Below are positions 1,881 through 34,900 of a DNA stretch of 40,001 nucleotides, in pieces. Within the stretch, counting starts at the first letter, position 1; the number at the start of each line of letters is the position of its first letter. This stretch comes from Escherichia coli. Its GTDB lineage: Bacteria; Pseudomonadota; Gammaproteobacteria; Enterobacterales; Enterobacteriaceae. The stretch lies in assembly GCA_011601165.1 (NCBI GenBank), contig GCA_011601165.1_4547.1, one strand, 5' to 3'. The notes under the pieces are model-generated. The model did not search any database, was not told where the DNA came from, and saw only the letters and a list, made by a program, of their open reading frames with translations. The position numbers and the translations under genes were made by a program.

Positions 1881-2446
1881 TAGTCCCTCCCGATGTCGGA
1901 CATCATGTTGTAGCGACCAGTATCCATCTCGTATTCCATGACCTGCTGATAGAGTTCTGCTTCCTGCTCACGAAGGTACAGTTCAGACTCTTGGCTACCG
2001 AAGAACTTAGCGTTGAACTCACGGCTAGCCTTGGTAACGATGTAGTCCCTGAAGACCACTGGCATCTCAGAGAATGGTTTCATCTCAACAAGCTCTACCG
2101 TTATAGGGTCGGTGAAAGTTGTTGACTGAGTGGACAGGTCGTACAGGTATCCACCCATGTTGCTGTAGTAGCTGGTGGCCCCAGCAGTCATTACACGAAG
2201 GTATGACGGTAGGAATCGAATCCTGTTGTCTTGGACATCAGGTATCAGGACAGCAGCTTCGTTGATGTTAAAGTTCCAGCCTTTAGCTTGTACCTGACGA
2301 TTGACACGATGCAGGATACGTTGAGCGTTCGAGACGTCAGCGTTACCTTCGTCAAGCTGTAGGACTGCTGGTTCACCGATAGCAGCTAACATATCATTGA
2401 TGGCATCTAAGTCATCGTTAGCATTCAGTGGAATGTATTGAGCCAT
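1880..2446 (-). CDS. 11: tail tubular protein A (T7 gp11)
   Basis: 188 aa, resembles T7 gp11 as recalled (…LAAIGEP…GWNFNI…YIVTKASREFN…MEYEMD); SD GGAGGG upstream. Confidence 0.85.
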   Translation of the reverse strand: MAQYIPLNANDDLDAINDMLAAIGEPAVLQLDEGNADVSNAQRILHRVNRQVQAKGWNFNINEAAVLIPDVQDNRIRFLPSYLRVMTAGATSYYSNMGGYLYDLSTQSTTFTDPITVELVEMKPFSEMPVVFRDYIVTKASREFNAKFFGSQESELYLREQEAELYQQVMEYEMDTGRYNMMSDIGRD

Positions 2447-2460
2447 AGGCCCTCCTTAAG

Positions 2461-2499
2461 CAAAAAACCCCTCAAGCACCCGAAGGCACCCAAGGGGTT
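2461..2499 (-). terminator. Tphi-like intrinsic terminator for phage RNAP between genes 10 and 11
   Basis: mRNA sense CCCCTTGGGTGCC-TTCG-GGTGCTTGAGGGG followed by TTTTTTG; resembles T7 Tphi as recalled. Confidence 0.8.
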
Positions 2500-2503
2500 T
2501 CAA

Positions 2504-3816
2504 TTAGTTTGTGAAAGATACGTTGAAGGAACGCACAGGCGAACCGTCATACTCAACAATCACTAGACCTTCCACGCCAGAGGTGGCCTTGAAGTAGAGA
2601 CTGTTGGTTCTACGGGAGTAACTAACACCATCAGGCGTAGCAACATCAAGCAGCGACCAGTCGGTCACATCTGAAAGCTCAGGGAAGTCAACCTTCAAGC
2701 TGGTTCCCACCGTAGAACTATACGTCTCTAAGGTAGGACCCTCGGTAGAGAGGGCCTTAAAGGTCGTTAACCCGCTGACGCTGCTGTGAAAACCAGTGCG
2801 CCTGCTGCTTCTGGACGCAGCCCACCGTGACCCATAGCGTACTTACCAACAATCAGGTCGCCCTGAGCATCGACGTCACGGTCACGTTCCAGCGCCAAAT
2901 CACGCAGCTTAACAGTGCCTACGGCAGATCGGTGAGAGAACAGGCCCACAACGTTGTCCAGCGCAACTTTAACATCACCAGTAGCAGTAGCCGGGAAGGC
3001 GTGCTTCTGACCGGAAGCGATAGTGATACCATCATCACCACGAGTCTCACCAGCACCGCCCTGAGTCAAGTGTGGAACTTCAACAACCACGAAGCCCATT
3101 ACGTTACGGATGTTACCAGTCTCTGGATCAATCAGCGCAGCATAGTTAGCAGCGTTTGGCATCAGAGCCGCGAGGATCGCAGAGTAGTTATCAGGCGTGG
3201 TGTAGAAGTAACGGTCGCCAGCAGGAACGTAGTTGGAGGTCAGCTTCGCACGCGCAATGGTCAATTGACCGATGATTGCTTCACCCAGTTTAGCTGGGGT
3301 ATCGAGGGCAGCTTTCGTACCAACTTCCAGTACGGATGCGGTGCCTAGACCAGCAATGTTCTCGTTGGATGCGGACGGAAGGTTACACAGGATAGCCATT
3401 TCAGCTAAAACCGCACCATCGGCAGCGATAGCCAGAGCTTCACCTAGCTGGTTGGAATACTCACCGGCCACGTCATAGTGGTTCATCGCGTCTTCAATAT
3501 CGAAAATCATCACATCGGCAGTCAGCAGACCATCAATGGTAATCACTTTCTCGGTATGTTTGATACCTTTACGCTTATCGGACAGTCGCTCACCGGGAGC
3601 CAGATACACACCAGAGGTGCGACCCATGACCGGGAACTGAGCAGACTTACCGTTCTGAATGGTACGGACAATATGCTTGTCAGCCGTTACAGAGCGGCGA
3701 GTGAATGCGGTCAGGACTTCACCAGCAAAGACCTTCAGGAACAACGCCAGAGCGTCGGAACTAGATTTGCCTTTACCTTGGTCTGTACCAATTTTCTGAC
3801 CCGGAACGTTTGCCAT
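2504..3816 (-). CDS. 10B: minor capsid protein 10B by programmed -1 frameshift at GGTTTTC (2788-2794), extension ends at 2504
   Basis: -1 frame is open from 2842 to 2504 with no stop; slippery heptamer G GTT TTC sits 8 codons before the 10A stop; same heptamer is used by T7 gene 10 as recalled. Confidence 0.65.
2767..3816 (-). CDS. 10A: major capsid protein 10A
   Basis: 349 aa, resembles T7 gp10A as recalled (…KVITIDGLLTADV…EDAMNHYDV…KYAMGHGGLRPEAAGA…); SD AGGAGA 8 nt before ATG. Confidence 0.95.
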   Translation of the reverse strand: MANVPGQKIGTDQGKGKSSSDALALFLKVFAGEVLTAFTRRSVTADKHIVRTIQNGKSAQFPVMGRTSGVYLAPGERLSDKRKGIKHTEKVITIDGLLTADVMIFDIEDAMNHYDVAGEYSNQLGEALAIAADGAVLAEMAILCNLPSASNENIAGLGTASVLEVGTKAALDTPAKLGEAIIGQLTIARAKLTSNYVPAGDRYFYTTPDNYSAILAALMPNAANYAALIDPETGNIRNVMGFVVVEVPHLTQGGAGETRGDDGITIASGQKHAFPATATGDVKVALDNVVGLFSHRSAVGTVKLRDLALERDRDVDAQGDLIVGKYAMGHGGLRPEAAGALVFTAASAG

Positions 3817-3920
3817 ATGATAATTCTCCTATTCAATTGAAAGATAAAGTTTATTACTTACTGTACGCCCAATCCGTATGGACTGAAGTAATAGGGGAAA
3901 ACCTTGAGTCTGCCTCTTGG

Positions 3921-3943
3921 TCTCCCTATAGTGATAGTTTAGT
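3921..3943 (-). promoter_or_regulatory. phage RNAP promoter (phi10 equivalent)
   Basis: ACTAAACTATCACTATAGGGAGA on minus strand, +1 G near 3926, upstream of capsid gene. Confidence 0.85.
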
Positions 3944-3944
3944 C

Positions 3945-4832
3945 CTACAGACTTGATGCAGCTACCTTAGCGCGAACTTCCATCGTGTACTTAGCGTCGC
4001 GCAGGTATCGCGGGTCACTCATAGCCTTAATCATGTCAGCCTTAGAGCTGAATGCTTCGGTCTGAGGAGCCTTAGGTGCGACCACAGGTTTAGCCTGAGT
4101 GGTGATGGTACGCTGAGGTTTAACGCCTACAGCTTTACCAAGTGTCTTTCCAGCAAGATTCAGCAGAGCTTTGGTAGTCGCAATGTCCTTACGAACGATA
4201 GCAGCTTCCAGTGCTTCACGAGTTGACGGGTCGGTTGACTCAAGGTGGGACAGGATTCGATTAAACTGTTCAGCTCCACCAGCGTAGCGAACCACACCAG
4301 CAGCATACTGTTCAGCCAGAGCTTCCTGACCACGGACAAACGAATCTACGAAACGCTTGGTGTAACCTGCTTCCTGCAACTTAGCGTAGGATGCGTCAGA
4401 CAGCTTACCGTCCTTGGCGTATTCAGCCTTGATAGCGGTAATTTCATCAGCAGTGACCTTGCCAGCTTCCACAGCAGAAGACACCATGTCGTCGAATGCA
4501 GCTTCGTTTTCATCCAACGCGGTGACACTTTCAGTCAGCTCTTTCGGTGCATCGCCCAGTTCGATGAACTCAGGCTGCTCACCATCGGTCTCAGACTCTT
4601 CGTCATCGGACTCGTGGTCTTCTTCACCTTCAGTCTCTTCGACGTTCTCGTCTTCTTCTTCGGTAGCCTCTTCGTTTTCGGCTTCCAGTTGCTTGAAGGT
4701 AATAGCGTCGTCGCCATCACGAACAGCTACGTCCTGTTCAAGCATAGACTTCTGGTGTTCGTTCAGGTCCTCAACGGAACCAGTGATTGCATTAGAGCTA
4801 ACGCCAAACTCGGCATAAACTGATTGAGACAT
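3945..4832 (-). CDS. 9: scaffolding protein (T7 gp9)
   Basis: acidic protein resembling T7 gp9 as recalled; start reset to ATG 4832 (MSQSVYAEFGV) with SD AAGGAG; track start 4898 lies upstream of the promoter +1. Confidence 0.85.
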   Translation of the reverse strand: MSQSVYAEFGVSSNAITGSVEDLNEHQKSMLEQDVAVRDGDDAITFKQLEAENEEATEEEDENVEETEGEEDHESDDEESETDGEQPEFIELGDAPKELTESVTALDENEAAFDDMVSSAVEAGKVTADEITAIKAEYAKDGKLSDASYAKLQEAGYTKRFVDSFVRGQEALAEQYAAGVVRYAGGAEQFNRILSHLESTDPSTREALEAAIVRKDIATTKALLNLAGKTLGKAVGVKPQRTITTQAKPVVAPKAPQTEAFSSKADMIKAMSDPRYLRDAKYTMEVRAKVAASSL

Positions 4833-19631: not shown

Positions 19632-22313
19632 TTAAGCGAATGCAAAGTCTGAAGACAAGATGTCTTCGATATTCAGTTTACCTTTCTTCGGAAGCTCAGG
19701 CAGCTTGTCGCGTTGGCTCTCATGAAGTTGGTATTCAAACTGCTCGTAGAAGTCAAGCAGCACATCGTTGTCGCGGTAGGTCTCGACCATCGTCTCACGG
19801 ACACCCCGGAACAGATACTCAGCGTCAGCCGGGATGGTCCCGAAGCTATCGTGAATCACTGCGAACGACATCACGCCATACTTACGGTGAGTGTGGACTA
19901 CAGTCTTGCGGAGGTGGCTACCATCTTGTGAGTGGACGAAGTTCGGGCTAATGCCTGACTCCTGCTTGTGCTTATCCAGCTCTTTCTTCGTGCCTTTATT
20001 GACTGTAGGCTGAAGGTTGAATGACCCTAAGAACATCAGGTTCAGACGCGTGGTATCCTTCTTGCGGTATTCCTGCCATACCGGGAACCCATCAGGTGTG
20101 ATCCAGTGTACCGGAAGGCAAGGCTTCAGGATTTCGCCAGTCTTCTTGTCCTTCACTTCAGCAGCCAGCAGCTTGGCAGCACCTTGAAGCCACTTCATCG
20201 CGTCAACCGCAGCAACTACGGTCACGCTCACAGCTTCCCAAATCATCTTAGCCATGAAGCGAGACGCTTGGCTTGGCTCGGTGAACATAGCGCCAGACCC
20301 TGAGTCAATCGCTGGCATTACGATGTCCTCATAAACTTGGTCTGCGAAACCATACTCTTTCGACCCGTAGGCCAGAGTCATGACTGAACGCTTAGTGACC
20401 TTGCGTGACATGCCGTAAGTCAGCCACTGCCGGGCCAGCTCTCGTGTCCCCAGCTTGAGACGTTCGGTAATCTCACCAGTTTTCTTGTCCTCGTGAGTTA
20501 CCATCTCGTTGTCCGTGCCGTTAACCAGCAGGACTTTAAGCTTCTCCTCAATGCGGTCAGATACGATGCGGTAGATGTCTTGGACCTTACCGGAAGGCGT
20601 CAGGTTTACTGCATGTCCACCGATGTGATCACGCAGCATCGCGCTGAAGTGCTGAATCCCAGAGCAGGACCCATCGAATGCTATCGGCAGCGAGCAGGAG
20701 TAAGACAATCCGTGGTGCATTACGCCAGCATACTCGAAGCAGAACGCTAGGAAGCAGAACGGAGAGTCTAACTTGCCCCACCACTCAATGCTGTCCATCG
20801 GTGCCTTAGCAGTAGCCATGATGTTGTCGTGGTTGTCTTCCACCCACTTGATGCGCTCCTCGAAGGTGACTTTATCAATACCCGCACAGTTTGCACCGTG
20901 GACCTTCAGCCATTTGAAACCGTCAGCACCAATAGGCTTACCGACTGCCAGAGTAAGGAGACCCTTCTGCATGTCGTTACCCTGAGGGTTGAACATCGGC
21001 ACAGCGTAGACGCGACCGCGCCAGTCCATGTTGTACGGGAACCAGATGGCCTTGAACTGGGAGAACTTGTTCGCCTGGTTAACGATAAAGCTCAGTGACA
21101 ATCTGCGTGACTGCCGGGCCTTCTCTCGGCGGTAGATACCAGCAGCAGCCTTCTTCCATGCCTTCAGTTCTTCCTCGGTCTCACCCGCATAGTCTTCAGG
21201 CTTCAGCGGCTCCATCTGAGGGATGTCGTCAATAGGCGTGTTGTTTAGCTTCTCGACCGTGTTCACCACTTCCAGCACCTTCTTGTTTACCTTCCAAGGT
21301 GTATTCTGGATGATGTTCACAGCGTCATAGACTTCAGGCATGTACACGTCCTCGTAACGCGCCACCGCAGACTTAGACCCTAAGCGAATCAGTGGTAGCG
21401 GTCTGCGACCTTTGGCCCAGTACCCACCGCCTACAACACCAGTCCACGGCTTAGGTGGAACGACGCAAGGCTGGTATACTGGAGCGATGCCCGCAAGGCT
21501 GAAGCCTCGTTGTGCCATCTTCTTGACCCAGAAGTCTGACAGGTGGATCATCTCGACGTCAGCCGCTGCATTGCCAGCACCGTAACGCGTAAGCTCGACC
21601 AGTTGTGTAGACTGAATGACAATCTCAAGCATCTTGATTCCAACGTGGACAGCCTCGGTCGGACTCCAAGTCCCCCACGCATCTTCTAGTTGACCTTGCT
21701 CCAGCATGGACGTCTCAACCGCTTGCATGTAGGCTTTCTTGTAGGATGCCCCTGCTCGCTTGTTCAGGTTATCAGCTATCGCCTTCTTGAAGTGCTCCTT
21801 CTCCTTGTCACGAATGCGGCCGAATCGGATTTCATCCTCAAGTGTGCGGCCTATCGCGGAGGCCATCGGTGTAATCGGTATCCCTTCAGGCTTGATCAGC
21901 TTGGAGAGGATGACCTTCAGTATGATAACCGCAGCAGACTCACAGGAGATGCGCAGAGAGCGGTCCTTTACGGCCTTCTCTTCAGTGCTCAACATGGTGA
22001 ATGCTACGCTAGGACGAGAGGTTGACAGCTTCCCGTCTGGACCTTCATGCCACTCCTTGACAGCTTGCGCAATCTTAGGTACCAGAGTCTGCATCAAAGG
22101 CTTGGCGACCTGATTGTCTGCCAGTTCCCCGCGCTCAGTCTGTCGCTCAAGGTTCTTGATGAAACGTCGCTCGCCTTCAGTGTATGCCTCATGCTCAAGC
22201 TGAAGCTGTTTGACTGCAAGGTCTTGCCCGTAGTGGTCAGCCAGCAGGTTAAACGGCTCAATAGCGTTAGATACATCAGAGAAGTCGTGTTTGTCAATGG
22301 AGATGACGCTCAT
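19632..22313 (-). CDS. 1: single-subunit DNA-directed RNA polymerase (T7 gp1)
   Basis: 893 aa; …HDSFGT…, C-terminus …DFAFA; colinear with T7 RNAP as recalled; recognition loop region differs from T7. Confidence 0.97.
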   Translation of the reverse strand: MSVISIDKHDFSDVSNAIEPFNLLADHYGQDLAVKQLQLEHEAYTEGERRFIKNLERQTERGELADNQVAKPLMQTLVPKIAQAVKEWHEGPDGKLSTSRPSVAFTMLSTEEKAVKDRSLRISCESAAVIILKVILSKLIKPEGIPITPMASAIGRTLEDEIRFGRIRDKEKEHFKKAIADNLNKRAGASYKKAYMQAVETSMLEQGQLEDAWGTWSPTEAVHVGIKMLEIVIQSTQLVELTRYGAGNAAADVEMIHLSDFWVKKMAQRGFSLAGIAPVYQPCVVPPKPWTGVVGGGYWAKGRRPLPLIRLGSKSAVARYEDVYMPEVYDAVNIIQNTPWKVNKKVLEVVNTVEKLNNTPIDDIPQMEPLKPEDYAGETEEELKAWKKAAAGIYRREKARQSRRLSLSFIVNQANKFSQFKAIWFPYNMDWRGRVYAVPMFNPQGNDMQKGLLTLAVGKPIGADGFKWLKVHGANCAGIDKVTFEERIKWVEDNHDNIMATAKAPMDSIEWWGKLDSPFCFLAFCFEYAGVMHHGLSYSCSLPIAFDGSCSGIQHFSAMLRDHIGGHAVNLTPSGKVQDIYRIVSDRIEEKLKVLLVNGTDNEMVTHEDKKTGEITERLKLGTRELARQWLTYGMSRKVTKRSVMTLAYGSKEYGFADQVYEDIVMPAIDSGSGAMFTEPSQASRFMAKMIWEAVSVTVVAAVDAMKWLQGAAKLLAAEVKDKKTGEILKPCLPVHWITPDGFPVWQEYRKKDTTRLNLMFLGSFNLQPTVNKGTKKELDKHKQESGISPNFVHSQDGSHLRKTVVHTHRKYGVMSFAVIHDSFGTIPADAEYLFRGVRETMVETYRDNDVLLDFYEQFEYQLHESQRDKLPELPKKGKLNIEDILSSDFAFA

Positions 22314-24184: not shown

Positions 24185-24225
24185 CAGTCAGGGCCTTCAG
24201 ATGTAGACTCAAAGACCCTGTAGTT
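24185..24225 (-). promoter_or_regulatory. RNA hairpin, candidate RNase III site (R0.3-like)
   Basis: mRNA CAGGGTCTT…AAGGCCCTG, imperfect stem. Confidence 0.45.
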
Positions 24226-24343
24226 AGTCGCTATCGGCGCACATTAAGAGTTTATCCAGATTTTTAAAGAGCATTCGCATTGGCTGTCGTCGCCGTGCTA
24301 GCCTGTTTCAGTGTTAGGCTTCACCGTTGTTTCAGTGTGGTAC

Positions 24344-24372
24344 ATCGTACAGCTTTTAAAGGAGGCTGTCAA
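24344..24372 (-). promoter_or_regulatory. host sigma70 early promoter (T7 A3-like)
   Basis: TTGACA-17 nt-TACGAT then GTACCACA, matching T7 A3 as recalled. Confidence 0.65.
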
Positions 24373-24490
24373 CCTGTTATTCTTTTACGCGGTGAGTGAC
24401 CGAATTCGACTCACGGCTAGTGCCTTATCCTTGGCTGGTCTCGGGCAGGTTTCTCGGTTCCTATCCCTACGCCATCTTGCTACGTGGTAC

Positions 24491-24520
24491 ATACTACTTT
24501 AAGTCGGTACAGCTTGTCAA
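24491..24520 (-). promoter_or_regulatory. host sigma70 early promoter (A2-like)
   Basis: TTGACA-18 nt-TAGTAT then GTACCAC. Confidence 0.55.
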
Positions 24521-24631
24521 CTACTTTCTGTCATCTGCCTGGTTTTCGTATGACTTATCAGGCTGTCTACTTAACCGGGATGACCCGGCGTCTTCACTAT
24601 CCGGTTGTTGCCGTGTCGTGTTGACGGAAGC

Positions 24632-24661
24632 TATTAAGCCACAGTATGGACCCATAGTCAA
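24632..24661 (-). promoter_or_regulatory. candidate host sigma70 promoter (A1-like)
   Basis: TTGACT preceded by AT-rich tract; -10 element poor. Confidence 0.3.
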
Positions 24662-24780
24662 TAGGTAATTTGAAATAATATTGATTGAGCTATCGTCGGC
24701 CCCATGGTGTAAGAGGATATAGTCTTTGACTAACATGTATTAGACCTTAAGTCTATAGCCATTGTGTCTATTAACTGTAG

Positions 24781-24875
24781 GTCTCTGACTGTAGGTGTTG
24801 GTGTCTTATGGTTGAGACAGTAGGTTAGTGAGGCTGTAGGTTGTGACTTATGGTTGAGACTTATGGTTATACAGA
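24781..24875. repeat. left-end short direct repeat array
   Basis: CTTATGGTTGAGAC twice plus CTGTAGG units on plus strand. Confidence 0.6.
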
Positions 24876-24876
24876 T

Positions 24877-25076
24877 AGGGACTCGGAGAAGACCAATAGT
24901 CCCGACCTATCGTCCCGACCTCCAGCCATAGCCTCAACCTATCGTTGACCTGAAGGCTTGACAGCTGGTCAAACCTTATGATAGACTGGAGGTATAGACC
25001 GAAGGTCTAGGGGTAGGGCCTTTGGTCGGACTGAAGGAGGGCCTATGGGGAGACTTGAGGTTCTTGAACTGTGAGA
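24877..25076. repeat. candidate direct terminal repeat, single collapsed copy (T7-like genome terminus)
   Basis: minus strand TCTCACAGT…CCCCATAGG… and …TCCCTATCTGT resemble the T7 terminal-repeat start and end as recalled; boundaries inferred. Confidence 0.3.
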
Positions 25077-25331
25077 TGTGGTCTCAAACTTTTGGTCCAA
25101 AACTCATCGTCACTACTGTAGGCCACAGCTAGCTTGCTAGCCACAGCCACTGTAGGTCAAGGACCGTATGTCAGGCGACACTAGGATAGACCAATAAGTA
25201 GGATGACCCTAAGTGAGCTTCTCTTAAGGTGTTACCTAAAGTCCTTGACTACAGTAGCTAAGGTCAGTAGAGTAGCGTCAGCTATGAACTGACCTTAGGT
25301 CTTACTTTCGTTGATTGTTACCATTACGGCG

Positions 25332-25490
25332 TTAATTACACTGAGACACCAGAGAACATACGAGAGTCTCGACCCACCCGACCCACTGGCTTCCAGCAGT
25401 AACGCCAGCAGCAAGTAGAACAGCAGCAAGAAACCTGTATGTAGCTCGATTGGTCGCCAGAGCTTTAAGTACAGCTTTGGTCTTTGCCAT
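25332..25490 (-). CDS. 19.5: gp19.5-like small membrane protein, 52 aa
   Basis: MAKTKAVLKALATNRATYRFLAAVLLAAGV…; TYRFL hydrophobic core as in T7 gp19.5 as recalled; SD AGGAGG. Confidence 0.6.
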   Translation of the reverse strand: MAKTKAVLKALATNRATYRFLAAVLLAAGVTAGSQWVGWVETLVCSLVSQCN

Positions 25491-25670
25491 ATGCTACATA
25501 CCTCCTGTATCTATGGTCGGTGACTATCTGTATTGGAGGGATTATGATTAATATCACCCTCCTTCCATCTGTGCAAGCCTTAGGTAAGAACTCGGAGTCT
25601 GCCTCCTAAGGTCTTGCATAAAGTCTGCATATGTATATTCACTACAGTAATACTATAAGTAACCGGGGGT

Positions 25671-25693
25671 CTTCCCTATAGTGATAGTTAAGT
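25671..25693 (-). promoter_or_regulatory. phage RNAP promoter (phiOR equivalent)
   Basis: ACTTAACTATCACTATAGGGAAG, after gene 19. Confidence 0.8.
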
Positions 25694-25787
25694 CCAAACT
25701 CCTTGTAAAACAGTAGGTTAGACTGGTAGTAACTATAGGTTACTAACCGCGTATTCATGCAGCTTTCACCTATAGTTATTCATTCAG

Positions 25788-27551
25788 CTAGTGGAACGTA
25801 ACGTATGACCCTAGCCCAAGCTCGTCGTCCATATCGTGAGTTACCCGGACCCCATTGTCCCAGAACTCAGTGTGGATGGACTCGAAGCCTTTCCGTGGGT
25901 TCTCCATCTGTTCCTCCAACCACTCCTCAGTGACTTCACGTTCACCTTTGTTGGCATCCTTAGCCATAGACTCAACGAAGAACTGCACACCGATAGCCAG
26001 TGCATCAAGTCGGTCATCGTGTGCCAAGGCTCCACGTTCACGAGAGATACGTGTCATCTGGTAGAAGAGAGAGTAGATAGGGTTACGAACACCATCCTTA
26101 TCAGAGGCTGACTGGTAGTCTTGGACGATAGCAGCAGCGTTAACGATAAGTCGGTGAGACCCCATGATAGGCTCCAGAACGTCACAGATGCGGAGTTCTT
26201 TCTGACCCTTACTCTTCACTTCAGTTACAGCAGCAGGATGGATACGGGCCGCTACAGGCTTGAATAGCTCAAGGTACATACCATCCCCGAAGTTGCCCTC
26301 AATGACGTACTCGTTGACCTTCCACTTACGACCAATCTTAGCCAGTGCTTCAAGCGTAGAGTCTTCATAGCCACCACGCATGCCACCAACTTCCATAGCG
26401 AAGATGTAGCCGTTGAGCTGGTACAGTACCGCATAACCAGTTTCATCCTTACCGCGACCACTAGGGTCAATGACCAGAATCTTCTGGGTGTACGAACTGA
26501 AGGCAGAACCTACAGTCTGATACGTGTGGTATGAGTCACCCATGAGTCCAACGTTAGGAACGTCCTCACGCTTGTTCTGAGGGTTAGGCAGCCATTGGTA
26601 GACCATTGGGCTGGATGCTGGGTCCAAGTCTGCTACGATAAGGTCACGGAGCTTCAGAGGGTACTTCTCAGCATCACTTAGGTTCGGGTTAAGCATAAAC
26701 TGTAGAGCGAAACCAGCTTTACCGTATGACAGCTCGCGTTCCTTCAGGTCTGTATCATCGAAGCGTACTTCATCAGTCGGACGCCAGTAGAAGGACTCAG
26801 GGTCCTCTTCAAGCTCTGCCTGAAGCATCGGTGCTAGACGGTCGCCGTAAGACTGCCAGTCCTTCCTGTCGCGTGGATAACGAGCAGGCCAGATAGTAGT
26901 GGTGTACCCACGACCTTCCAACTCACGATACAGGGTCATCTCGTTCTGAGGAGTACCCAGATAGATGATTGTACCTCCCGGCTTCAGGATAGCGTCGAAC
27001 TCTTTCACAAGCTCTGACAGACGGTCTCGTGCGGCCTGAGTCGCTGAGTTGTTCGGAACCTCCACGTCATCGGCAATCAGGATGTCAGCACGACTACCAG
27101 TCAACTGACCAGTGATACCAACGGACTTAACCGAAGGTGAGTGGTCTGGCTTGGCTGGTCCAACGTCGAAGCTGATAACCGCATCTCGCTGCCCCTGCTT
27201 AGGTTTTAGTTCCTGAAGCTGAGGCATGAGGTCGATGATTCGCTTGATGAAGATGGAGTTAGCATCGGCTCGTTCCTTTGAGGCCGACACAATCATGAAC
27301 TTCAAGTCTGGGTTGTTCCATAGCTTCCAGACAACGAAGGCACACGTAATGAAGGACTTCCCTATACCACGGAACGCCTGTAGGATGAAGCGCCTGTTGT
27401 CCCCAGCCGATAGTTTCTTCGCCATGTCAATCTGACAGCGAGTCGGGACTGGGAGTGACAGAGCTTTCCACAGTACGAACAGGAAGAACACGAAGTCTGC
27501 CTTCATACGTGCAGTCATTAGCGCCTGACGCGCCACTAAGTCTTTACTCAA
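25788..27551 (-). CDS. 19: terminase large subunit (T7 gp19)
   Basis: 587 aa; …[24 protein letters not shown]…[10 protein letters not shown]… as T7 gp19 as recalled; apparent TTG start with SD GAGGTG. Confidence 0.95.
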
Positions 27552-27562
27552 TGCGTCACCTC

Positions 27563-28354
27563 TTAAGAGTTAAAGATGCGGTCAACGCGAACAGTCAGGG
27601 AGGTCAGAGTAAGGTCCTCAGACCCTGTAACTGCAATGCCAAGCATGATGCCAGTAGTAACGAACGAGTCGTCTGTATTAGCTATGTAGCTATGGATGGC
27701 TGCCTCACGAATGGTGAATAACTGCTGGTCATCTGTGTCCGTCACGGAAGACATGGTAGTGTTATCGGGTCTACGCAGCTGCACTCGCCACTTATGGGCT
27801 GAGGCTGTAGGGAACTCACCAGCGAACCGAACGACGAAGTTTACACCACTGAGTCCCTCTTTAGCTGGGAACATCATCTTTCCTTCGGAGATAGTAACGA
27901 CGCCGCTGTCCACTCTCTTCACTAAAGGTAGAGTCATTAGGTTAGTGAACTGACCAGCCGCACACACTTGGGTTCCTGACCAGTCGAAGGTATCCAGAGA
28001 ATACTCAGCGTGGGATACAGGACGTGACTCCCGATAAGTATACTCTACCTTAACAAGTCCGACGCCGCTGTTATTCAGCTTGGTGACTTTAAGAATCAGG
28101 AAGTCGTCTTCTGTGGTACCAACCGCTTCCAGACGTACACTGCCTGATTGTAGAGGCCAGCCGCCACCATCGGAGAAATTACCAGTAGCAGACGTACCGT
28201 CGCTTAGTGTAATCCTTGTAGACTCGGCGTTAGCTGGGACCTTCACGTATATTGTACCAGATAACAAGTGACCGGATGCGTTCTTCAGTCCAGATGGGGT
28301 ACCAGTAGCAAAATGCCAAACTACGTCAGTTCTCAAAGTAATAATATTACCCAT
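27563..28354 (-). CDS. hypothetical protein, 263 aa; no T7 counterpart at this position
   Basis: ORF starts 8 nt inside Rz 3' end; Gly/Ser/Thr/Val-rich, predicted beta-rich; no motif recognised. Confidence 0.6.
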
Positions 28355-28799
28355 TGTCTTTCTCCTTGTCTTGTTGAAGTTTTCGAATAGTATCCTGTAG
28401 TGCTTTAATCCAAGCGTCCCCTTTCAGTCCGATGGAGATAAGACGTTTAGCATCTCGTTCGTCAAGTTCGGCGTAACCATCAATGATGCATCGACCGTCA
28501 CTTTGCGGGGTTCCACTCGTAGGTTTGACTCGGATGCGCAACCGCTTATTGTCAGACTGAAGGTCAGCAATAATCCTATCAGTGCTACCTTCCAGCGAGG
28601 ACATTTCGTCCTGAAACCGTTTGGACACCTTGTTGACTTCAGCTTGGACAGCAAGTCTTGTATCCTCCGATGCCTTAAGATTCGAGGTGTATTCTGCATT
28701 GATCTTAGCCTCCCACTTGTTGTTAGCGGTGTGATAGCCACCAGCAAACATCACTGCTGCAAGTAACCACGGAGCCGCTCTCTTTAAAAAATCGAGCAT
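28347..28799 (-). CDS. 18.5: i-spanin Rz (gp18.5)
   Basis: 150 aa, N-terminal TM helix then coiled coil; Rz1 embedded. Confidence 0.8.
   Translation of the reverse strand: MLDFLKRAAPWLLAAVMFAGGYHTANNKWEAKINAEYTSNLKASEDTRLAVQAEVNKVSKRFQDEMSSLEGSTDRIIADLQSDNKRLRIRVKPTSGTPQSDGRCIIDGYAELDERDAKRLISIGLKGDAWIKALQDTIRKLQQDKEKDNG
28424..28699 (-). CDS. 18.7: o-spanin Rz1 (gp18.7), embedded in Rz in another frame
   Basis: lipobox LTISGC; C-terminus …LMVTPNLTNEMLNV… as T7 Rz1 as recalled; start set at ATG 28699 with SD GGGAGG. Confidence 0.7.
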   Translation of the reverse strand: MQNTPRILRHRRIQDLLSKLKSTRCPNGFRTKCPRWKVALIGLLLTFSLTISGCASESNLRVEPRKVTVDASLMVTPNLTNEMLNVLSPSD

Positions 28800-28854
28800 A
28801 GTTGCCCTCCCGGTTTATCAGATTTCACGTAGAGTCTCCTCCACTAGTTAGTGT

Positions 28855-28896
28855 TAACCATAAAGGCCACTACATATAGTAATGACCTTGAGTCTA
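28855..28896 (-). promoter_or_regulatory. conserved RNA hairpin, candidate RNase III site (R18.5 equivalent)
   Basis: mRNA GACTCAAGGTCATTACTATATGTAGTGGCCTTTATGG. Confidence 0.5.
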
Positions 28897-28900
28897 ACGC

Positions 28901-29164
28901 TTACTGCACTCCATATCCAGTGTCATTATCTTCCGTAGCGGATAGCACCTTATCGTACTCTGCGTTCAGGGCCTCCATATCAGCAAGCGTCTTCTCGTCA
29001 ACAGACACCTTGCTTAGCACGAAGTTGTGACGAGCCAGTAGCTTCTCAATGGCGTTGTAAAGCTGAGGTGAACGCTTAGAGTCATCCCGCAGGTCTTGCA
29101 GCATGAGTCGAGCACGTTCAGTATCTAGCATTAAGAGGAACTTCTCTAAGTCCATCTGCGTCAT
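28901..29164 (-). CDS. 18: terminase small subunit (gp18)
   Basis: 87 aa ORF at the T7 gene 18 position, coupled to holin (ATGA). Confidence 0.7.
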   Translation of the reverse strand: MTQMDLEKFLLMLDTERARLMLQDLRDDSKRSPQLYNAIEKLLARHNFVLSKVSVDEKTLADMEALNAEYDKVLSATEDNDTGYGVQ

Positions 29165-29358
29165 GTTTTACCACCCCCTCCTTTAATCGTTTTGTAGACT
29201 AGCACACCAATCTGGACAACGGTGTACGCGATAGCTGCAACGTAGAACCACTCGTTCAGTGTAAGTCCGAAGAAGAACCGACTGGCACCATCAGCCGCAG
29301 CGGTCCCGACGATAGGAGAGGCTTTAAGGACCTCATTCTTGAAGTCTAACTCAATCAT
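29161..29358 (-). CDS. 17.5: holin (gp17.5)
   Basis: …KASPIVGTAAADGASRFFFGLTLNEWFYVAAIAYTVVQIG… matches T7 gp17.5 as recalled. Confidence 0.85.
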   Translation of the reverse strand: MIELDFKNEVLKASPIVGTAAADGASRFFFGLTLNEWFYVAAIAYTVVQIGVLVYKTIKGGGGKT

Positions 29359-29472
29359 AAAACCTCCAGTTTAAAGCGGGTCGTCCGTGACCATAAGTTG
29401 TTACCATACGTTGGTCAGCGTGTAGTTAGCCTCTACCTCCACAACCTTCGATGACGACATTCCGCTCTAATT

Positions 29473-31917
29473 TTAATTGTACCAACTTGCCTGACTCTGG
29501 GACTTGCTATCACACCTTAATGCGAACGTGTAATACGCAGCCGCCCGCCCGGGGAACGTAAATACAATCCTTGCTGATTGTTTGTCACCAGGTAGAACAG
29601 GCTGCCAGTCAAATTCACCAAACAAGTTAGGGTTGTAGTCTGCGCTATGAATAGTTGCGGTGTCAGGTGCAATAATATCATCACCGTACATCTTTGTTAT
29701 CCGTAACGAACTAGAGCCATCGAATCTCTGCAGTACATACCGGGCGTGCCCGTTAGGATTTGTTCCGTTGTTTGTTGACCCCCTAACTGTAATGTCTAAA
29801 TACGCAACCTGAGTATCATAAAACGACGTTATTTGAGCCTGCCATGTCTGCATACCATCCGGCATAGGAACGGTGACCGTACCCAGTATAGCCGCAGCCG
29901 GAGTTCTTGATACATCAGAACCCTGAGGATACGGGACGTGGGTAATGAAACATTCAGTTTCTGCTGGTCTACCGTTGAACAACGCCGCTTGGATAACATC
30001 CTTCACCCGCGCTGGCTTAATCCGGATGCCTGAAACGTAGATGTTTGTAGCATTTGCTCCATAGGTACTTATGTAAATGGTTTTCCATCCAGCACCTACC
30101 AATGTACCCGCCCATGCGTCCAGTCCTTTTGAGTTTGTTCGACCGCCCTTGACCTGATAGCCGGAGGTTTCGGTAATGGCTTTACCCTGATTACGTTTTA
30201 GTGTGTCTCTGTTGCGCGCCGCTGGTACCCGTGCTGCATACTCAGGGAGCTTTTCGTTAGCCTCTTCAGCAATGGTTACATATGCACCGTCAAGGATCCC
30301 GACTATATCCAGCGTAGCCAGTTCACATCCTAGATAAAAACTGAATGAAATTCTGGCTGTGGAATTAGCGGCAAAATCAGCAACACCGCCATTGGTCAGG
30401 TACGAATTACGCGTATAGGCCATCGTGGCACCTTTATTCCAGAACCCAACTTTTGACGAGCTTCTGCCGACCTGCTGAGAATAAAGTCCGGTTACTGGGA
30501 CGATGTTTTGCACATAACCACCAGCCAATACGAATGAGGCCACTGCTCGACCGTATTTGAAATAACCCTGCTTATTGAAATGCGCCCCATCTGAGTATAT
30601 ACCAGCATATTCAGCATATTGCGTGACAATTTCTGATTCAAATACCGGGCACCCATAAACCTCGGCGATTGACTGTACAAACTGATAATATGGTGCATTA
30701 AAGTTATTACCGGAGTTAAATTGTAGTGCCGTTGTTGTGTGTAAAACTACGCCACAACCCCAATCAATGTATCTCTTTACTAGTTTCTCGATGTACTCAC
30801 AGAACTGTTCAAATGTTGAACCTAACTTACCCTCTGTGTCATTAATGCCGAGCATTATATGAGCGACATGTGCATTTGGGTTAGTTGTCCATCTATCAAA
30901 ACTTGCCTTTGCAGTGTCACCGGAGAAACCACGGTTAATAACAGTTACCGTCGAGTTGGTCATTGCATTTAAAGAATTTTGCAGTTGTTTAGGATATGTG
31001 ATAGGTGCATGAGTTGCCCAATCGCCGTTGTCTGCCGGTACTTTGTCCGCCGAGTTATTGTCATAGCCCGCCGTCAGGCTATCACCAACGCAGACTATTG
31101 TAAGTGGCTCGCCAGAGCGTAAACGTTTATTAGCCTGACCAAGTAACCTACGGTTTTTGTGCCGATATTTAGCTGACGCCAAGCGCTGAATCTCTGCCCC
31201 AATACTATCATCCTGATAAGACTTAGAGTCGTCATAACCCACCAGCCCAGCGCCAGTTCCTTCATTTAAAGCCGCTCTCAACGAGGCATCACCAACGCTA
31301 ACCCATGCACCCAAACCAACGCCGCCGGTTGAAGCTGGGGTTGAACCAGCAGGCACTGTTTTTGGTAGGCCACCATCCCAGCGGTAATACTCACCATCCG
31401 CTTCCCATAGCAGGACCTCGCTCCATGTTGTAACGTTGAAGCCTTTCTCGAAGGAGCGACGGGTAATATAGCCAAGTAGACCTGCCTTGACACTCGAAGA
31501 GATTCGTCGAGCTTCGTCCTCGCTATCCTTAGCGCTAGCAGCAGAGATACCAGCAGCATCGGCATACTCCTTCGCTAAGTCAACAGTTTGGTCTCGACCT
31601 TCTTCTGCAATATGGATAGCCTGAAGCTCTGCATTGGTCAGGTCACTAGCTGTCAACACTGAGCCATTCCTGAAGTCTACCACTAAGTCAGTCCCAGTCT
31701 GACGGTGAATACGAACGATGTCGAAACCTGATTGGTCAACCAACATCTCAATCATCGTTGGGTTAAGGAATCGGTAATCTCGACCAACTTCCAGTACACG
31801 GTTCAGGGTAGGGTTAGAGCTATTCACCAGCGTAACAACAACAAACGTTCTGGCTAGGTAGTCGAACTCAATCCTGTACTGAGTGTTTCCTGAAGGGAAT
31901 TGTGTAATCGTGGACAT
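29473..31917 (-). CDS. 17: tail fiber/tailspike: T7 gp17-type N-terminal anchor plus GDSL/SGNH esterase domain and C-terminal beta-rich region
   Basis: N-terminus …FDYLARTFVVVTL…LVVDFRNGSVL… as T7 gp17; SGNH blocks GDSLT (near 31069-31083), GINDT, DGAHF. Confidence 0.85.
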   Translation of the reverse strand: MSTITQFPSGNTQYRIEFDYLARTFVVVTLVNSSNPTLNRVLEVGRDYRFLNPTMIEMLVDQSGFDIVRIHRQTGTDLVVDFRNGSVLTASDLTNAELQAIHIAEEGRDQTVDLAKEYADAAGISAASAKDSEDEARRISSSVKAGLLGYITRRSFEKGFNVTTWSEVLLWEADGEYYRWDGGLPKTVPAGSTPASTGGVGLGAWVSVGDASLRAALNEGTGAGLVGYDDSKSYQDDSIGAEIQRLASAKYRHKNRRLLGQANKRLRSGEPLTIVCVGDSLTAGYDNNSADKVPADNGDWATHAPITYPKQLQNSLNAMTNSTVTVINRGFSGDTAKASFDRWTTNPNAHVAHIMLGINDTEGKLGSTFEQFCEYIEKLVKRYIDWGCGVVLHTTTALQFNSGNNFNAPYYQFVQSIAEVYGCPVFESEIVTQYAEYAGIYSDGAHFNKQGYFKYGRAVASFVLAGGYVQNIVPVTGLYSQQVGRSSSKVGFWNKGATMAYTRNSYLTNGGVADFAANSTARISFSFYLGCELATLDIVGILDGAYVTIAEEANEKLPEYAARVPAARNRDTLKRNQGKAITETSGYQVKGGRTNSKGLDAWAGTLVGAGWKTIYISTYGANATNIYVSGIRIKPARVKDVIQAALFNGRPAETECFITHVPYPQGSDVSRTPAAAILGTVTVPMPDGMQTWQAQITSFYDTQVAYLDITVRGSTNNGTNPNGHARYVLQRFDGSSSLRITKMYGDDIIAPDTATIHSADYNPNLFGEFDWQPVLPGDKQSARIVFTFPGRAAAYYTFALRCDSKSQSQASWYN

Positions 31918-31963
31918 TATGCCTCCTTTGTGATTTAAACGGAGACCTATGGTAGCGCCTCCA

Positions 31964-31986
31964 GTTTCCTATAGTGATAGTTTAGT
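31964..31986 (-). promoter_or_regulatory. phage RNAP promoter (phi17 equivalent)
   Basis: ACTAAACTATCACTATAGGAAAC. Confidence 0.8.
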
Positions 31987-34900
31987 CCTTGATGTGGATG
32001 CCTTGCTCCTCAAACGTTCCAAGCAACAGCTTCTGGGTAATGGGGTCGTTCGGAACCAGTTCACGGAACGTATTATACATCCCGGTCATGTAGTCACGCT
32101 CGTTGACACGAGTATCAGCCTTTAGGTAGCCAGCCAAGTTGTAAGCCGAAGCGCCAACGTTAGCAGCATATCCGAAAGCTGGAACCTGCTCCAAGAAGTT
32201 ACCAACAACATTCATCACAGGGTCACTTGTAGCTGCACCATACGTGATGGCACGTTCAGGCTTCTCTGTAGGTGAACGAGGTAGGATAGACGAACGGAGC
32301 ATCTTAGTGTCCTCGTACCCAGCGATACCACCCAGAATGTTAGCTACCCCAAGTGGTCCACCGAGATGTGAACTACGGGACAGAGCCGCATATCCAATCA
32401 TCGTCGGGTCCAGAGCTTGCTTGAGGTAGTCACGGTCACGACCATCCTGCATAGCGTAAGCCTTGATATGTGCCTGAGCCATGTAGTAGATACCAGCAAG
32501 ACCCATAGAGATCACAGTGGACAGAGCAGCATCCATCGCTCGGTTGTTCTTCGTGGCGTTATAGAAGGTTCGCATGGTACGCCCATTGATAGACTTGATG
32601 ACGAAGTTCTTAAACTGAAGGACAGCCTTAGCGCGAGGACCATAAGCCTTGGCGTCCATGTTTGACAGCTTGTGGGGCCGGAGTAACGTTTCGTCAGCGA
32701 TGGTGTCACCCATACGCCACAGGTCCATAGCCCTTGGGTCCTGACTGAACGCCTTCTTATCCTTGATGGTATACTTCCCGTCTGGACCACGAGTCACTGA
32801 CTCACGGATTAGGGACTTAATACCCTTCCACTGCTCGTCAGAGATACCAGCGGTCTTCAGCCAGCGGTCATCGAACTTACGCTTACTGCCAGTCAGACTA
32901 TGCTCCACGATGTCAGACAGGAAGCCTTGACGTCCAGCATCTAACAGGTAGTTTGTCGTACCGTTGAGGACTTTAGTGAACGGAGAGCGTACTGCAAGTT
33001 CACCAGTGTAATACTTGGCAGAGCCTAAAACCGTAGCCGTAGGTTTACTCAAGGCGCTGTAAGACCGCAGACGGTCAATGACATCCTGTTTAGACGGACG
33101 GATTGAGTCATCCAGTTCCTTACCGAAGATAACATTGTGCAGGTCCTTAATCTCTGAGGCCCCTACCTTCTTGTTACGGAATGCTAGGTCACGGAAAATC
33201 GGGACTCCATGCAGCATTGCACGGACGTTACCACGGGCCAGCATACCACCAATCTCCGTTAAGTTCTGAACACCCATGTAGGCATTCTTAGCGAAGAACG
33301 ATAGGTCTGTCATTGTGCGCATCACTGTAGCGAAGGCTGCATCATCAGCACCATCACGTCGAGCACGACCAGTGAGAATCTTCAAGGTGTCACGTAAGGT
33401 CGAGACCTCACCTTTCAACTTACCGTCATCCCCGGCCTTGTTCATCATGGTCTCAACCAAGTCCTTCATGTCCTTCGTGGTCTTTCCTGTACCAGCCATG
33501 ATAGCGATGTCCCCATTAACTCGACGGTTGTACGCCGGAACAATCTTGTCCATGTCCCACTCACGCAGGTTGTTGACACTGAAGGTCTGGCCGTTAGGCA
33601 GGACTATTGACATATCGCTATCGAACAGGTTACGAGCCTCAAGGAAGCTGTTGTTCTCCAGACCCACCAGACCGTTGATGTTCTCTTCCATTACGGAGGA
33701 GCGTTCGAACTGCTCGGTGTGAGAGATACCGTAAGCCTTATCATTGGCGTACTTATCGACCGCAGCCGCAAGTCCTTCTGGAGTCAACGTAGGGTCAGCC
33801 TCTAATAGTGCCTCGTCCACACGTTTCTTGACTTCAGGTCGAGACGCATAGCTGGTAAGCCATGACTTCTTGATTGCCTCCTGCAACGCCTCTGGACTCC
33901 CAAGCTCCTTGATGTACAGCTCCTTCATCTGGTGGCTATACACATGCGGGACGTAGGTTCCCTTGAAGCGGCTACCCGGAAAGATAGACTTAGCGTCTGG
34001 ACGCCCAAACATAGACGGGTTCTCCATCATCTCACGCTTGGCGTCAAACTGGTTCTTCAGCAGGTCATATACTTTCAGCTCTCCCGGAGTCAGTTCAGCC
34101 TTCAGGTTCCCACTACCATCTTCGATAGCCATAGACACGCGCTGATAGATGTCTTGACGGAATGCGCCAGAGTCTCGCCAGAATGCTGTCTGGAAGTAAG
34201 GGTCCTTGAGTGCCTCAGTAATAGCATCGTCGATGTCGTTGTAGAACCGATGGTCCACAGCACGAAGTCTCTCGAATACGTCTGACGCTGTGGTCCCGAT
34301 TTTACCTGAAGCCCCAGACTGCATACCAGTTGGTGAACGCACTAAGTCAGCAGCTACTCCCCGAATCTCAGGGTTCTCAGACCGAAGCAGCTTCAGGCCA
34401 ATCTCAGTCAGACCACCAAGGTTCACACCAGCAGCGGCACGTTCAGGCTCAATCACTTCGTCAAAGACCTTACGTGTCTTAGGGTTAAGAGGGTTCTCAC
34501 CAATCAGGATTGAACCATCTTCAAGTCGTACACTGCCCGGCTCATTCGGAACGTCAGCGAACTTAACGCCTTGATGACTAAAGGTCTGCTCACCTTCCTG
34601 AATGGGGAGACGAGACAGGTCTTGACCATCAACGTTACGAGCGGTCTCACGAGCTTCCAGACGTGTAGCTGGACCAGCGAACTCGTTAGTGTTTCGTCCT
34701 AAGGCTCTGCCTAGCCCATCAGCGATAGCAGTCATACCACCACCGAAGAGAGCACCACCAAGGATAGCTTCAGCCACATGAGCATCACCGCCAGCCACTG
34801 AGGTACGGGCCATCTCAGACACACCAGCCAGTGCCCCAGATTGAGCAGCCACGGTGAACATCTTGTTGACCAGCTTGCCACCTTTACCCACCTGTCCAGC

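Follow-up and report, generated by a model that had tools for sequence, protein, structure and literature searches.

Gene 18.8 of a T7-like Kayfunavirus, a late and dispensable gene between the spanin and large terminase genes, probably encodes an optional surface adhesin

Gene 18.8 of a T7-like phage probably encodes an optional surface adhesin, and is neither an orphan nor a protease gene. The window, a stretch of 40,001 nucleotides from an Escherichia coli assembly (GCA_011601165.1), carries a T7-like (Kayfunavirus) genome with its genes on the minus strand. Gene 18.8 is genuine, late and selected, a knob fold is predicted for its product, its relatives are modular, its alleles turn over fast, and it is dispensable. 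Our best explanation, which we hold tentatively and at slightly less than an even chance, is that the product is an accessory, virion-displayed trimeric adhesin. Made late and dispensable, 18.8 would form a homotrimer that sits on the outside of the virion as a short fibre or decoration. Its N-terminal beta-sandwich, specific to T7-like phages, may dock it to the particle, on the capsid or the tail. The knob, facing away from the particle, would recognise a surface ligand, probably a glycan of the host envelope or its surroundings. 18.8 could thereby add reversible adhesion independent of the gp17 tailspike.

The gene and its immediate neighbours are arranged as follows.

27563..28354, minus strand: gene 18.8, 263-aa ORF (from the ORF list; ATG at 28352-28354, TAA at 27563-27565)
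28362-28367, minus strand: Shine-Dalgarno AAGGAG of gene 18.8 (read from the sequence; 7 nt upstream of the ATG, within the last Rz codons)
28347..28799, minus strand: Rz-like i-spanin (gene 18.5), the upstream neighbour (PF03245, phrog_1327)
about 28424-28699, minus strand: o-spanin gene 18.7, embedded in the Rz-like gene (CLB_P1 annotation)
25788..27551, minus strand: T7-type large terminase (TerL, gene 19), the downstream neighbour (PF22530, E 6e-38)

The 263-aa ORF is uninterrupted at exactly 27563..28354, on the minus strand like all phage genes in the window, and its flanks comprise a holin, the small terminase (TerS), Rz with embedded Rz1, and the T7-type TerL. Its ATG lies inside the 3ʹ end of the Rz-like gene with an overlap of 8 nt, and its Shine-Dalgarno sequence was rated strong. 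An 11-nt spacer, GAGGTGACGCA, which has its own GAGGTGA, separates the TAA from the TTG start of TerL at 27551. An earlier note on this DNA had named both flanks, the spanin cassette and the large terminase, as found here, and had placed the start of the ORF within the Rz 3ʹ end and its stop just ahead of the terminase start, in agreement with the overlap and the spacer. The Gly/Ser/Thr/Val richness that it described was also seen (T 11.8, V 9.5, S 9.5 and G 9.1%, together 40% of residues). The GC content of the gene was 0.49, against 0.50 for the genome, and the protein sequence had no signal peptide or membrane segment. Comparison with the orthologue of phage P762 gave a dN/dS of 0.09-0.10 (0.096) at a dS of 0.87, with about 0.09-0.10 for both domains of the protein. 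The gene is therefore under purifying selection, far beyond a chance ORF. Intact, preceded by a Shine-Dalgarno sequence, selected, and with homologues in several phage lineages, the ORF is a real gene, as the earlier note had taken it to be.

Expression of 18.8 was assessed from the promoter map. The pattern of the annotated EcoDS1 phiOR promoter, with the core AACTATCACTATAGGGA, was scanned over the window. The core of this phage RNA-polymerase promoter had 11 matches, all on the minus strand, against a chance expectation of 0.09; they lie at 3923, 4923, 8156, 14613, 16731, 17689, 19321, 22385, 25673, 31966 and 39242, and give a promoter map of the genome. The two on either side of 18.8 are:

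31966..31982, minus strand: phage RNA-polymerase promoter before gene 17, the nearest upstream of 18.8 (EcoDS1 phiOR pattern)
25673..25689, minus strand: phiOR-type promoter after gene 19, the next one downstream (EcoDS1 phiOR pattern)

No match to the pattern was found between them. Since promoters were present only before gene 17 and after gene 19, genes 17, 17.5, 18, 18.5/18.7, 18.8 and 19 form one late transcription unit, and the late expression proposed in the earlier note is supported by the place of 18.8 within this unit. Scans for sigma-70 promoters and terminators gave counts at or below chance. The late co-transcription with structural and packaging genes, together with the strong Shine-Dalgarno sequence, counts for the adhesin reading. 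Around 24200-25700 of the window, the late genes, gene 19 and the phiOR promoter pass straight into early genes, with the RNA polymerase gene at 19632-22313. Because late genes run directly into early genes, the assembly is circularly permuted or of concatemer type, and contains the genome end region.

Structure prediction resolved the protein into two domains.

28019..28354, minus strand: N-terminal domain, aa 1-112, a nine-strand beta-sandwich (AF2 model, pLDDT about 90)
27566..28003, minus strand: C-terminal domain, aa 118-263, a TNF/C1q-like jelly-roll knob (phrog_17779 core; motifs W..Q.RRP and DPF..G)

A first AF2 model, made with a knob-rich alignment, resolved the C-domain only, the pLDDT of the N-domain being 37-69. 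In a second model (mf36a8afa423a), for which distant two-domain relatives were added to the alignment, the mean pLDDT was 88.6, both domains reached about 90, and a flexible linker was placed around residues 110-118. Residues 117-262 gave a significant profile match to phrog_17779 (E 2e-22), a family of unknown function to which 18.8 thus belongs, as reciprocal family searches also indicated, while the protein had no match in Pfam (E<=0.1), NCBIfam, PADLOC (E<=1) or PDB sequences.

The C-domain, as modelled, is a TNF/C1q-like knob: it was predicted as a compact ten-strand jelly-roll superimposable on the TNF, C1q or Sf6 knob domains, consistent with 'TNF-like' in ECOD. Its fold matches were the tail-needle knobs of Sf6 and HS1, the PRD1 vertex spike P5, BclA, C1q, TNF and cyanophage tail-fibre tips. 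Foldseek on the C-domain gave the same picture and extended it to ExsFA/BxpB, the TNF-like lectins BC2L-C and PLTL, and the central-spike knob of phi812. Matches in BFVD included the CLB_P1 protein, a homologue from FBKp16, and numerous phage proteins whose names say tail fibre, minor tail, C1q-domain or collagen-repeat. The structure prediction and fold search that the earlier note had proposed as a check therefore returned a TNF/C1q-like knob plus a beta-sandwich. That note had recognised no catalytic motif; none was found in Pfam or NCBIfam, and the fold is non-enzymatic. TNF-like knobs on phage appendages are of a known kind and, to our knowledge, the TNF/C1q-like knob fold is trimeric wherever it has been solved. 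A recent preprint counts it as one of the carbohydrate-binding receptor modules that recur at the C-terminus of phage receptor-binding proteins (bioRxiv 10.64898/2026.05.12.724579).

Within the family, only T7-like members have the N-domain, which is conserved in the relatives P0049, P0072, P0078 and P0080. The N-domain had no Pfam or PDB sequence match, a profile search of the PDB returned noise, and it was not assigned to a known fold or family, the fold searches with the whole model being dominated by the knob. It is no copy of the knob domain (hhalign probability 0.6%), no paralogue was present among the other proteins of the phage in the window, and comparison with the N-terminal anchors of the phage B2 and S16c homologues described below, or with neighbouring small proteins, revealed no relation. 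The N-domain also had no match to PF03906, the tail-docking domain of T7 gp17 (Pfam, E<=0.1), which counts against the adhesin reading. Since the N-domain is unrelated to PF03906, to the B2 and S16c anchors and to other proteins of the phage, it does not point to a docking site on the particle.

The C-terminal 145 residues are common, at about 30% identity, to small late proteins of several phage groups, as found by tblastn and profile searches. These groups are N4-like phages (Ithacavirus), Chaseviridae, epsilon15-like phages, E217/PB1-like myoviruses, a Klebsiella podovirus group and prophages. In the relatives the knob is always C-terminal, and it follows collagen repeats (PF01391), tail-fibre repeats (PF22337) or a GDSL esterase domain. 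The position of the gene varies. The homologue ends the tail-fibre cluster in Chaseviridae, and in Aeromonas phage ZPAH14 the knob gene comes after four tail-fibre genes. In epsilon15-like and E217/PB1-like phages it lies between the portal (or MuF) gene and the scaffold and capsid genes, and by analogy such head-module positions count for the adhesin reading. In N4-like and T7-like phages it comes straight after the spanin genes. In one P22-like prophage its position is moron-like, and such family members outside structural modules count against the adhesin reading. The motifs RRP(D/N)G and DPF count against it as well: they are the most conserved and are common to phages of very different hosts, unlike hypervariable receptor-binding loops.

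Two of these relatives link the knob to decoration-type anchors. In Shigella phage B2 (L023; 3456-4468), the homologue gp46 is encoded directly after gp45, a homotrimeric decoration protein seen on the capsid hexons by cryo-EM (PDB 9d82; Subramanian et al., Sci Adv 2024, PMC11654681). The first 45 residues of gp45 and gp46 are 49% identical (BLASTP E 8e-14; PDB chain 9d82_J, E 1.3e-7), and the proteins differ in their C-termini, which are phi29-head-fibre-like (PF11133) in gp45 and the knob in gp46. This shared N-terminus, of which the parts of PMC11654681 that we consulted make no mention, suggests that the capsid site of gp45 could also serve gp46. In Klebsiella phage S16c (L008; 3628-5450), four tandem genes have a common 85-aa N-terminal module, which stands alone in two of them, and is joined to an Ig domain matching Hoc-like head-decoration PHROGs in another and to a TNF-like knob in the last. 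The PHROG of this module, phrog_2725, bears the name 'acetyl-CoA acetyltransferase', apparently a misnomer. The picture suggested by these sequences is that the knob is a portable display domain placed on lineage-specific anchors, several of them decoration-type.

The B2 virion is at the same time the strongest counter-evidence to the adhesin reading: gp46 alone among the homologues has virion proteomics and cryo-EM in print, and the mass-spectrometry table of the virion in PMC11654681 has gp45 and lacks gp46, and gp46 is absent from the modelled density too. The earlier note's candidate of an extra virion or receptor-binding component stands insofar as it fits the knob fold, the fibre- or decoration-type N-termini of the homologues and an evolution of the host-interaction type (below); it is weakened by the missing gp46.

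The absence of gp46 from that table would be expected if 18.8 were instead a soluble, late, non-virion TNF-like lectin, which is released at lysis and binds envelope glycans or debris, for example to mask receptors and so keep progeny from being lost on lysed cells, or to alter neighbouring cells. The place of the gene directly after the spanin genes in T7-like and N4-like phages, the lectins BC2L-C and PLTL among the fold matches, and the moron-like position in the P22-like prophage fit this explanation as well. Against it, 18.8 has no signal peptide or membrane segment, the N-termini in B2 and S16c are common to decoration or Hoc-like proteins, relatives have collagen and tail-fibre stalks, which imply attachment to a particle, and no precedent was found in the searches made. 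We consider a soluble lectin unlikely.

The earlier note had called 18.8 an orphan, which proved incorrect: the gene had already been deposited as CLBP1_18.8, it matches phrog_17779, and a small family exists. Gp18.8 of CLB_P1 (AGD81082.1, 'putative protease'; Escherichia phage, Kayfunavirus) lies at the same locus and is 94% identical in amino acids, the DNA of the region being 96.7% identical between the two phages. The orthologues QUR34673.1 of P762 (85%) and EPr2_0060 of Providencia phage EPr2 (46-48%) also occupy this locus. EPr2_0060 (L003, OM256482; about 2351-3136) was given 207 aa in its annotation, with an internal Met as start, which is too far downstream; the real ORF begins MGLIITTETDVVWHY..., has 261 aa, and adjoins the spanin gene, like 18.8 in the window. 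The CLB_P1, P762 and EPr2 proteins are orthologues that do not differ in kind from 18.8, and their database names are uninformative or wrong. What is new here is the structural assignment of 18.8, the N-domain without a fold match and the link to the B2 and S16c decoration anchors; the gene itself was already in GenBank.

A word-indexed homology search with the single 18.8 protein found just four close relatives. The wider family was reached with a profile built from tblastn-derived homologues, and an exhaustive search of 1.84 billion representatives gave 47 cluster representatives at E<=1e-3. Scans of IMG/VR with the 18.8 protein and with P0078 found no relatives, and complete E. coli genomes had no match to the gene at the DNA level. 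In the literature, no functional data on gp18.8 or on its CLB_P1, EPr2 and N4-like homologues were found beyond the B2 paper.

Phage records were searched with positions 27000-29200 of the window, flanks included, and only 4 of the 666 matching records covered at least 80% of this query. The segment that is exchanged is nearly the ORF itself:

27563..28360, minus strand: exchangeable cassette without a counterpart in EcoDS1-type genomes (blastn breakpoints against EcoDS1, Bas105 and EPr2, and annotations)

In EcoDS1-type genomes a 53-aa ORF takes the place of 18.8. To call the gene an insertion, as the earlier note did, was therefore fair. Its proposed comparison with related genomes came out in two ways: few of the phage records with its flanks cover the whole stretch, and distant relatives keep the same slot in other T7-like contigs. 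The distant full-length relatives P0072, P0078 and P0080 are 24-27% identical to 18.8 over both domains, and on their contigs each copy lies between an Rz-like spanin and a T7-type TerL. One such contig, L014 (Logan, SRR4201716; 251-1907), has tandem paralogues of 271 and 273 aa, 28% identical to each other, between spanin and TerL.

The identity of 18.8 to its counterparts was compared with that of the flanking proteins.

EPr2: 18.8, 46-48%; holin 100%, TerS 98.9%, Rz 93.8%, TerL 99.7%
P762: 18.8, 85.5%; flanks 95-100%
L015: 18.8, 25%; TerL 62%
L013 and L014: 18.8, 27%; TerL 71-74%

Against P762, dS was 0.87 in 18.8 and 0.13-0.29 in Rz, TerS and TerL, about 4-fold above the flanks (window 25788-29164). 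Because their dS is four times that of the flanks, the 18.8 alleles are older than their surroundings. This excess indicates recombination breakpoints at the gene borders and points to cassette exchange. 18.8 thus evolves like a host-interaction cassette, since the EPr2 allele, from a phage with a Providencia host, is only 46-48% identical against 94-100% in its flanks, the relatives are at 25-27%, and a tandem pair occurs. The slot between Rz and TerL (18.5/19) is a conserved but hypervariable locus across T7-like phages, and its recognition is new here.

Two copies of the gene are damaged. Bas105_0004 of phage Bas105 (L002, PQ850601; 1002-1424) has 140 aa and an in-frame deletion of aa 42-154, which joins residues 1-41 to 155-263; such a fusion would break both folds. 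Bas105 is a viable O16-dependent phage (bioRxiv 10.1101/2024.09.12.612763). Its gene is followed, before TerL, by the 56-aa ORF Bas105_0005, and both this ORF and the 53-aa ORF in the same slot of EcoDS1 end in KEVKH. In the 39.8-kb metagenomic contig L017 (Logan, SRR10902856; about 3894-4684), 18.8 has a frameshift near codon 9 (MGNIITLKQT*, with the rest in another frame). The 227-aa product of L017, with a late start due to the frameshift, was also called in the contig of a second run (L018), and the frameshift is either pseudogenisation or a shared assembly error. From the Bas105 deletion and the L017 frameshift, gene 18.8 is dispensable, at least in laboratory propagation. These two cases and the 4 of 666 records show it to be accessory and sporadic among close relatives, as decoration and head-fibre proteins are, and by that analogy its dispensability is what one expects of a decoration or an accessory fibre.

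A patchy distribution, fast divergence and dispensability would also fit a counter-defence gene, and EPr2, whose allele is divergent, infects another host genus. The other candidate of the earlier note, a late factor acting inside the cell in anti-defence or superinfection exclusion, is nevertheless quite improbable in our judgement. Nothing was found in its support: PADLOC (E<=1), Pfam and NCBIfam gave no match, the fold is that of an extracellular or structural knob without a known anti-defence member, class III timing is late for counter-defence, and homologues are fused to collagen or tail-fibre stalks.

The tailspike of the phage was considered separately. Gp17 (29473-31917, minus strand, 814 aa) consists of PF03906, a TSP1/gp66-type N domain (PF18668) and a GDSL/SGNH esterase domain, and is probably a spike of the O-antigen deacetylase type. 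No record of the phage collection covered at least 80% of window positions 27400-32000; the phage of the window is absent from the collection because its tailspike differs. The gp17 proteins of the window and P762 have only their N-terminal 214 residues in common, and CLB_P1 has a different arrangement. Since the tailspike heads of its carriers differ, 18.8 does not track the tailspike, which counts against the adhesin reading. That 18.8 itself is a fibre of the T7 gp17 type was rejected: PF03906, present in the phage's own gp17, is absent from it, and BLASTP against gp17 showed no relation.

A role as tailspike accessory, either an assembly chaperone or a tip adhesin capping gp17 in the manner of T2 gp38, would agree with the frequent nucleation of trimer folding by knob-type domains and with the presence of 18.8 and gp17 in one late operon. 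We regard it as very unlikely, since the holin, TerS and spanin genes separate 18.8 from gene 17, an 18.8 allele of 85-94% identity accompanies unrelated tailspike heads, and the gene is absent from most Kayfunaviruses with similar spikes. The protease of the GenBank and NCBI names ('putative protease', 'protease') is hardly credible: inherited names alone speak for it, no peptidase family or catalytic motif was found in Pfam, NCBIfam or PDB sequences, the predicted TNF-like jelly roll plus beta-sandwich is non-enzymatic, and a neighbouring gene in epsilon15-like phages carries the label 'endoprotease', which suggests a mislabel.

The virion of T7-like phages is generally seen as minimal and well catalogued, with only one receptor-binding protein, and CLB_P1 and its relatives serve as model phages for the gut and for therapy. 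A wider proposal, which we find possible but doubtful, goes beyond the adhesin reading of 18.8 itself. T7-like phages may have an unrecognised, hypervariable and dispensable locus between spanin and terminase, whose product would be a two-domain trimeric fibre decorating the particle, with a novel beta-sandwich as anchor and a TNF-like knob. Exchanged as a cassette, it might provide a second, tailspike-independent layer of adhesion, for example to gut mucus or O-antigen, and might be part of a wider podovirus system in which decoration-type anchors carry interchangeable display domains (Ig-like, phi29-fibre-like and TNF-like). An optional surface protein with a knob would be a factor in adsorption, host range or gut persistence that has gone unnoticed, and a natural display scaffold. 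At the least, a structural assignment replaces the misleading 'protease' or 'hypothetical' label, and a small family is defined whose locus in T7-like phages is conserved.

Among known systems, the tail-needle knob of Sf6 and HS1 (gp9 C-terminal domain; PDB 3rwn, 4k6b) resembles the 18.8 C-domain in fold, at 13-14% sequence identity and without a Pfam-level relation. It caps a long coiled-coil needle that plugs the tail, whereas the knob of 18.8 follows a 110-aa beta-sandwich in a free-standing 263-aa protein, and the T7-like phage of the window, unlike Sf6 and HS1, has no needle. Membership of 18.8 in the Sf6-type tail-needle knob family was rejected, as it had no Pfam or PDB sequence match and its N-part is a beta-sandwich, not a coiled coil. 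PRD1 P5 (PDB 1yq5, 1yq8), which has no sequence relation to 18.8, has a collagen-like or Gly-rich shaft and stands at the penton of a membrane-containing double-jelly-roll capsid. BclA and the C1q-type collagen-knob proteins carry a collagen repeat that 18.8 lacks. B2 gp46/gp45 and the S16c array differ from 18.8 in their N-terminal anchors (45 and 85 aa), which are unrelated to its 110-aa N-domain; like 18.8 they are small late proteins whose genes come right after those for lysis or packaging, and their knobs are true sequence homologues of the 18.8 knob, at about 30% identity.
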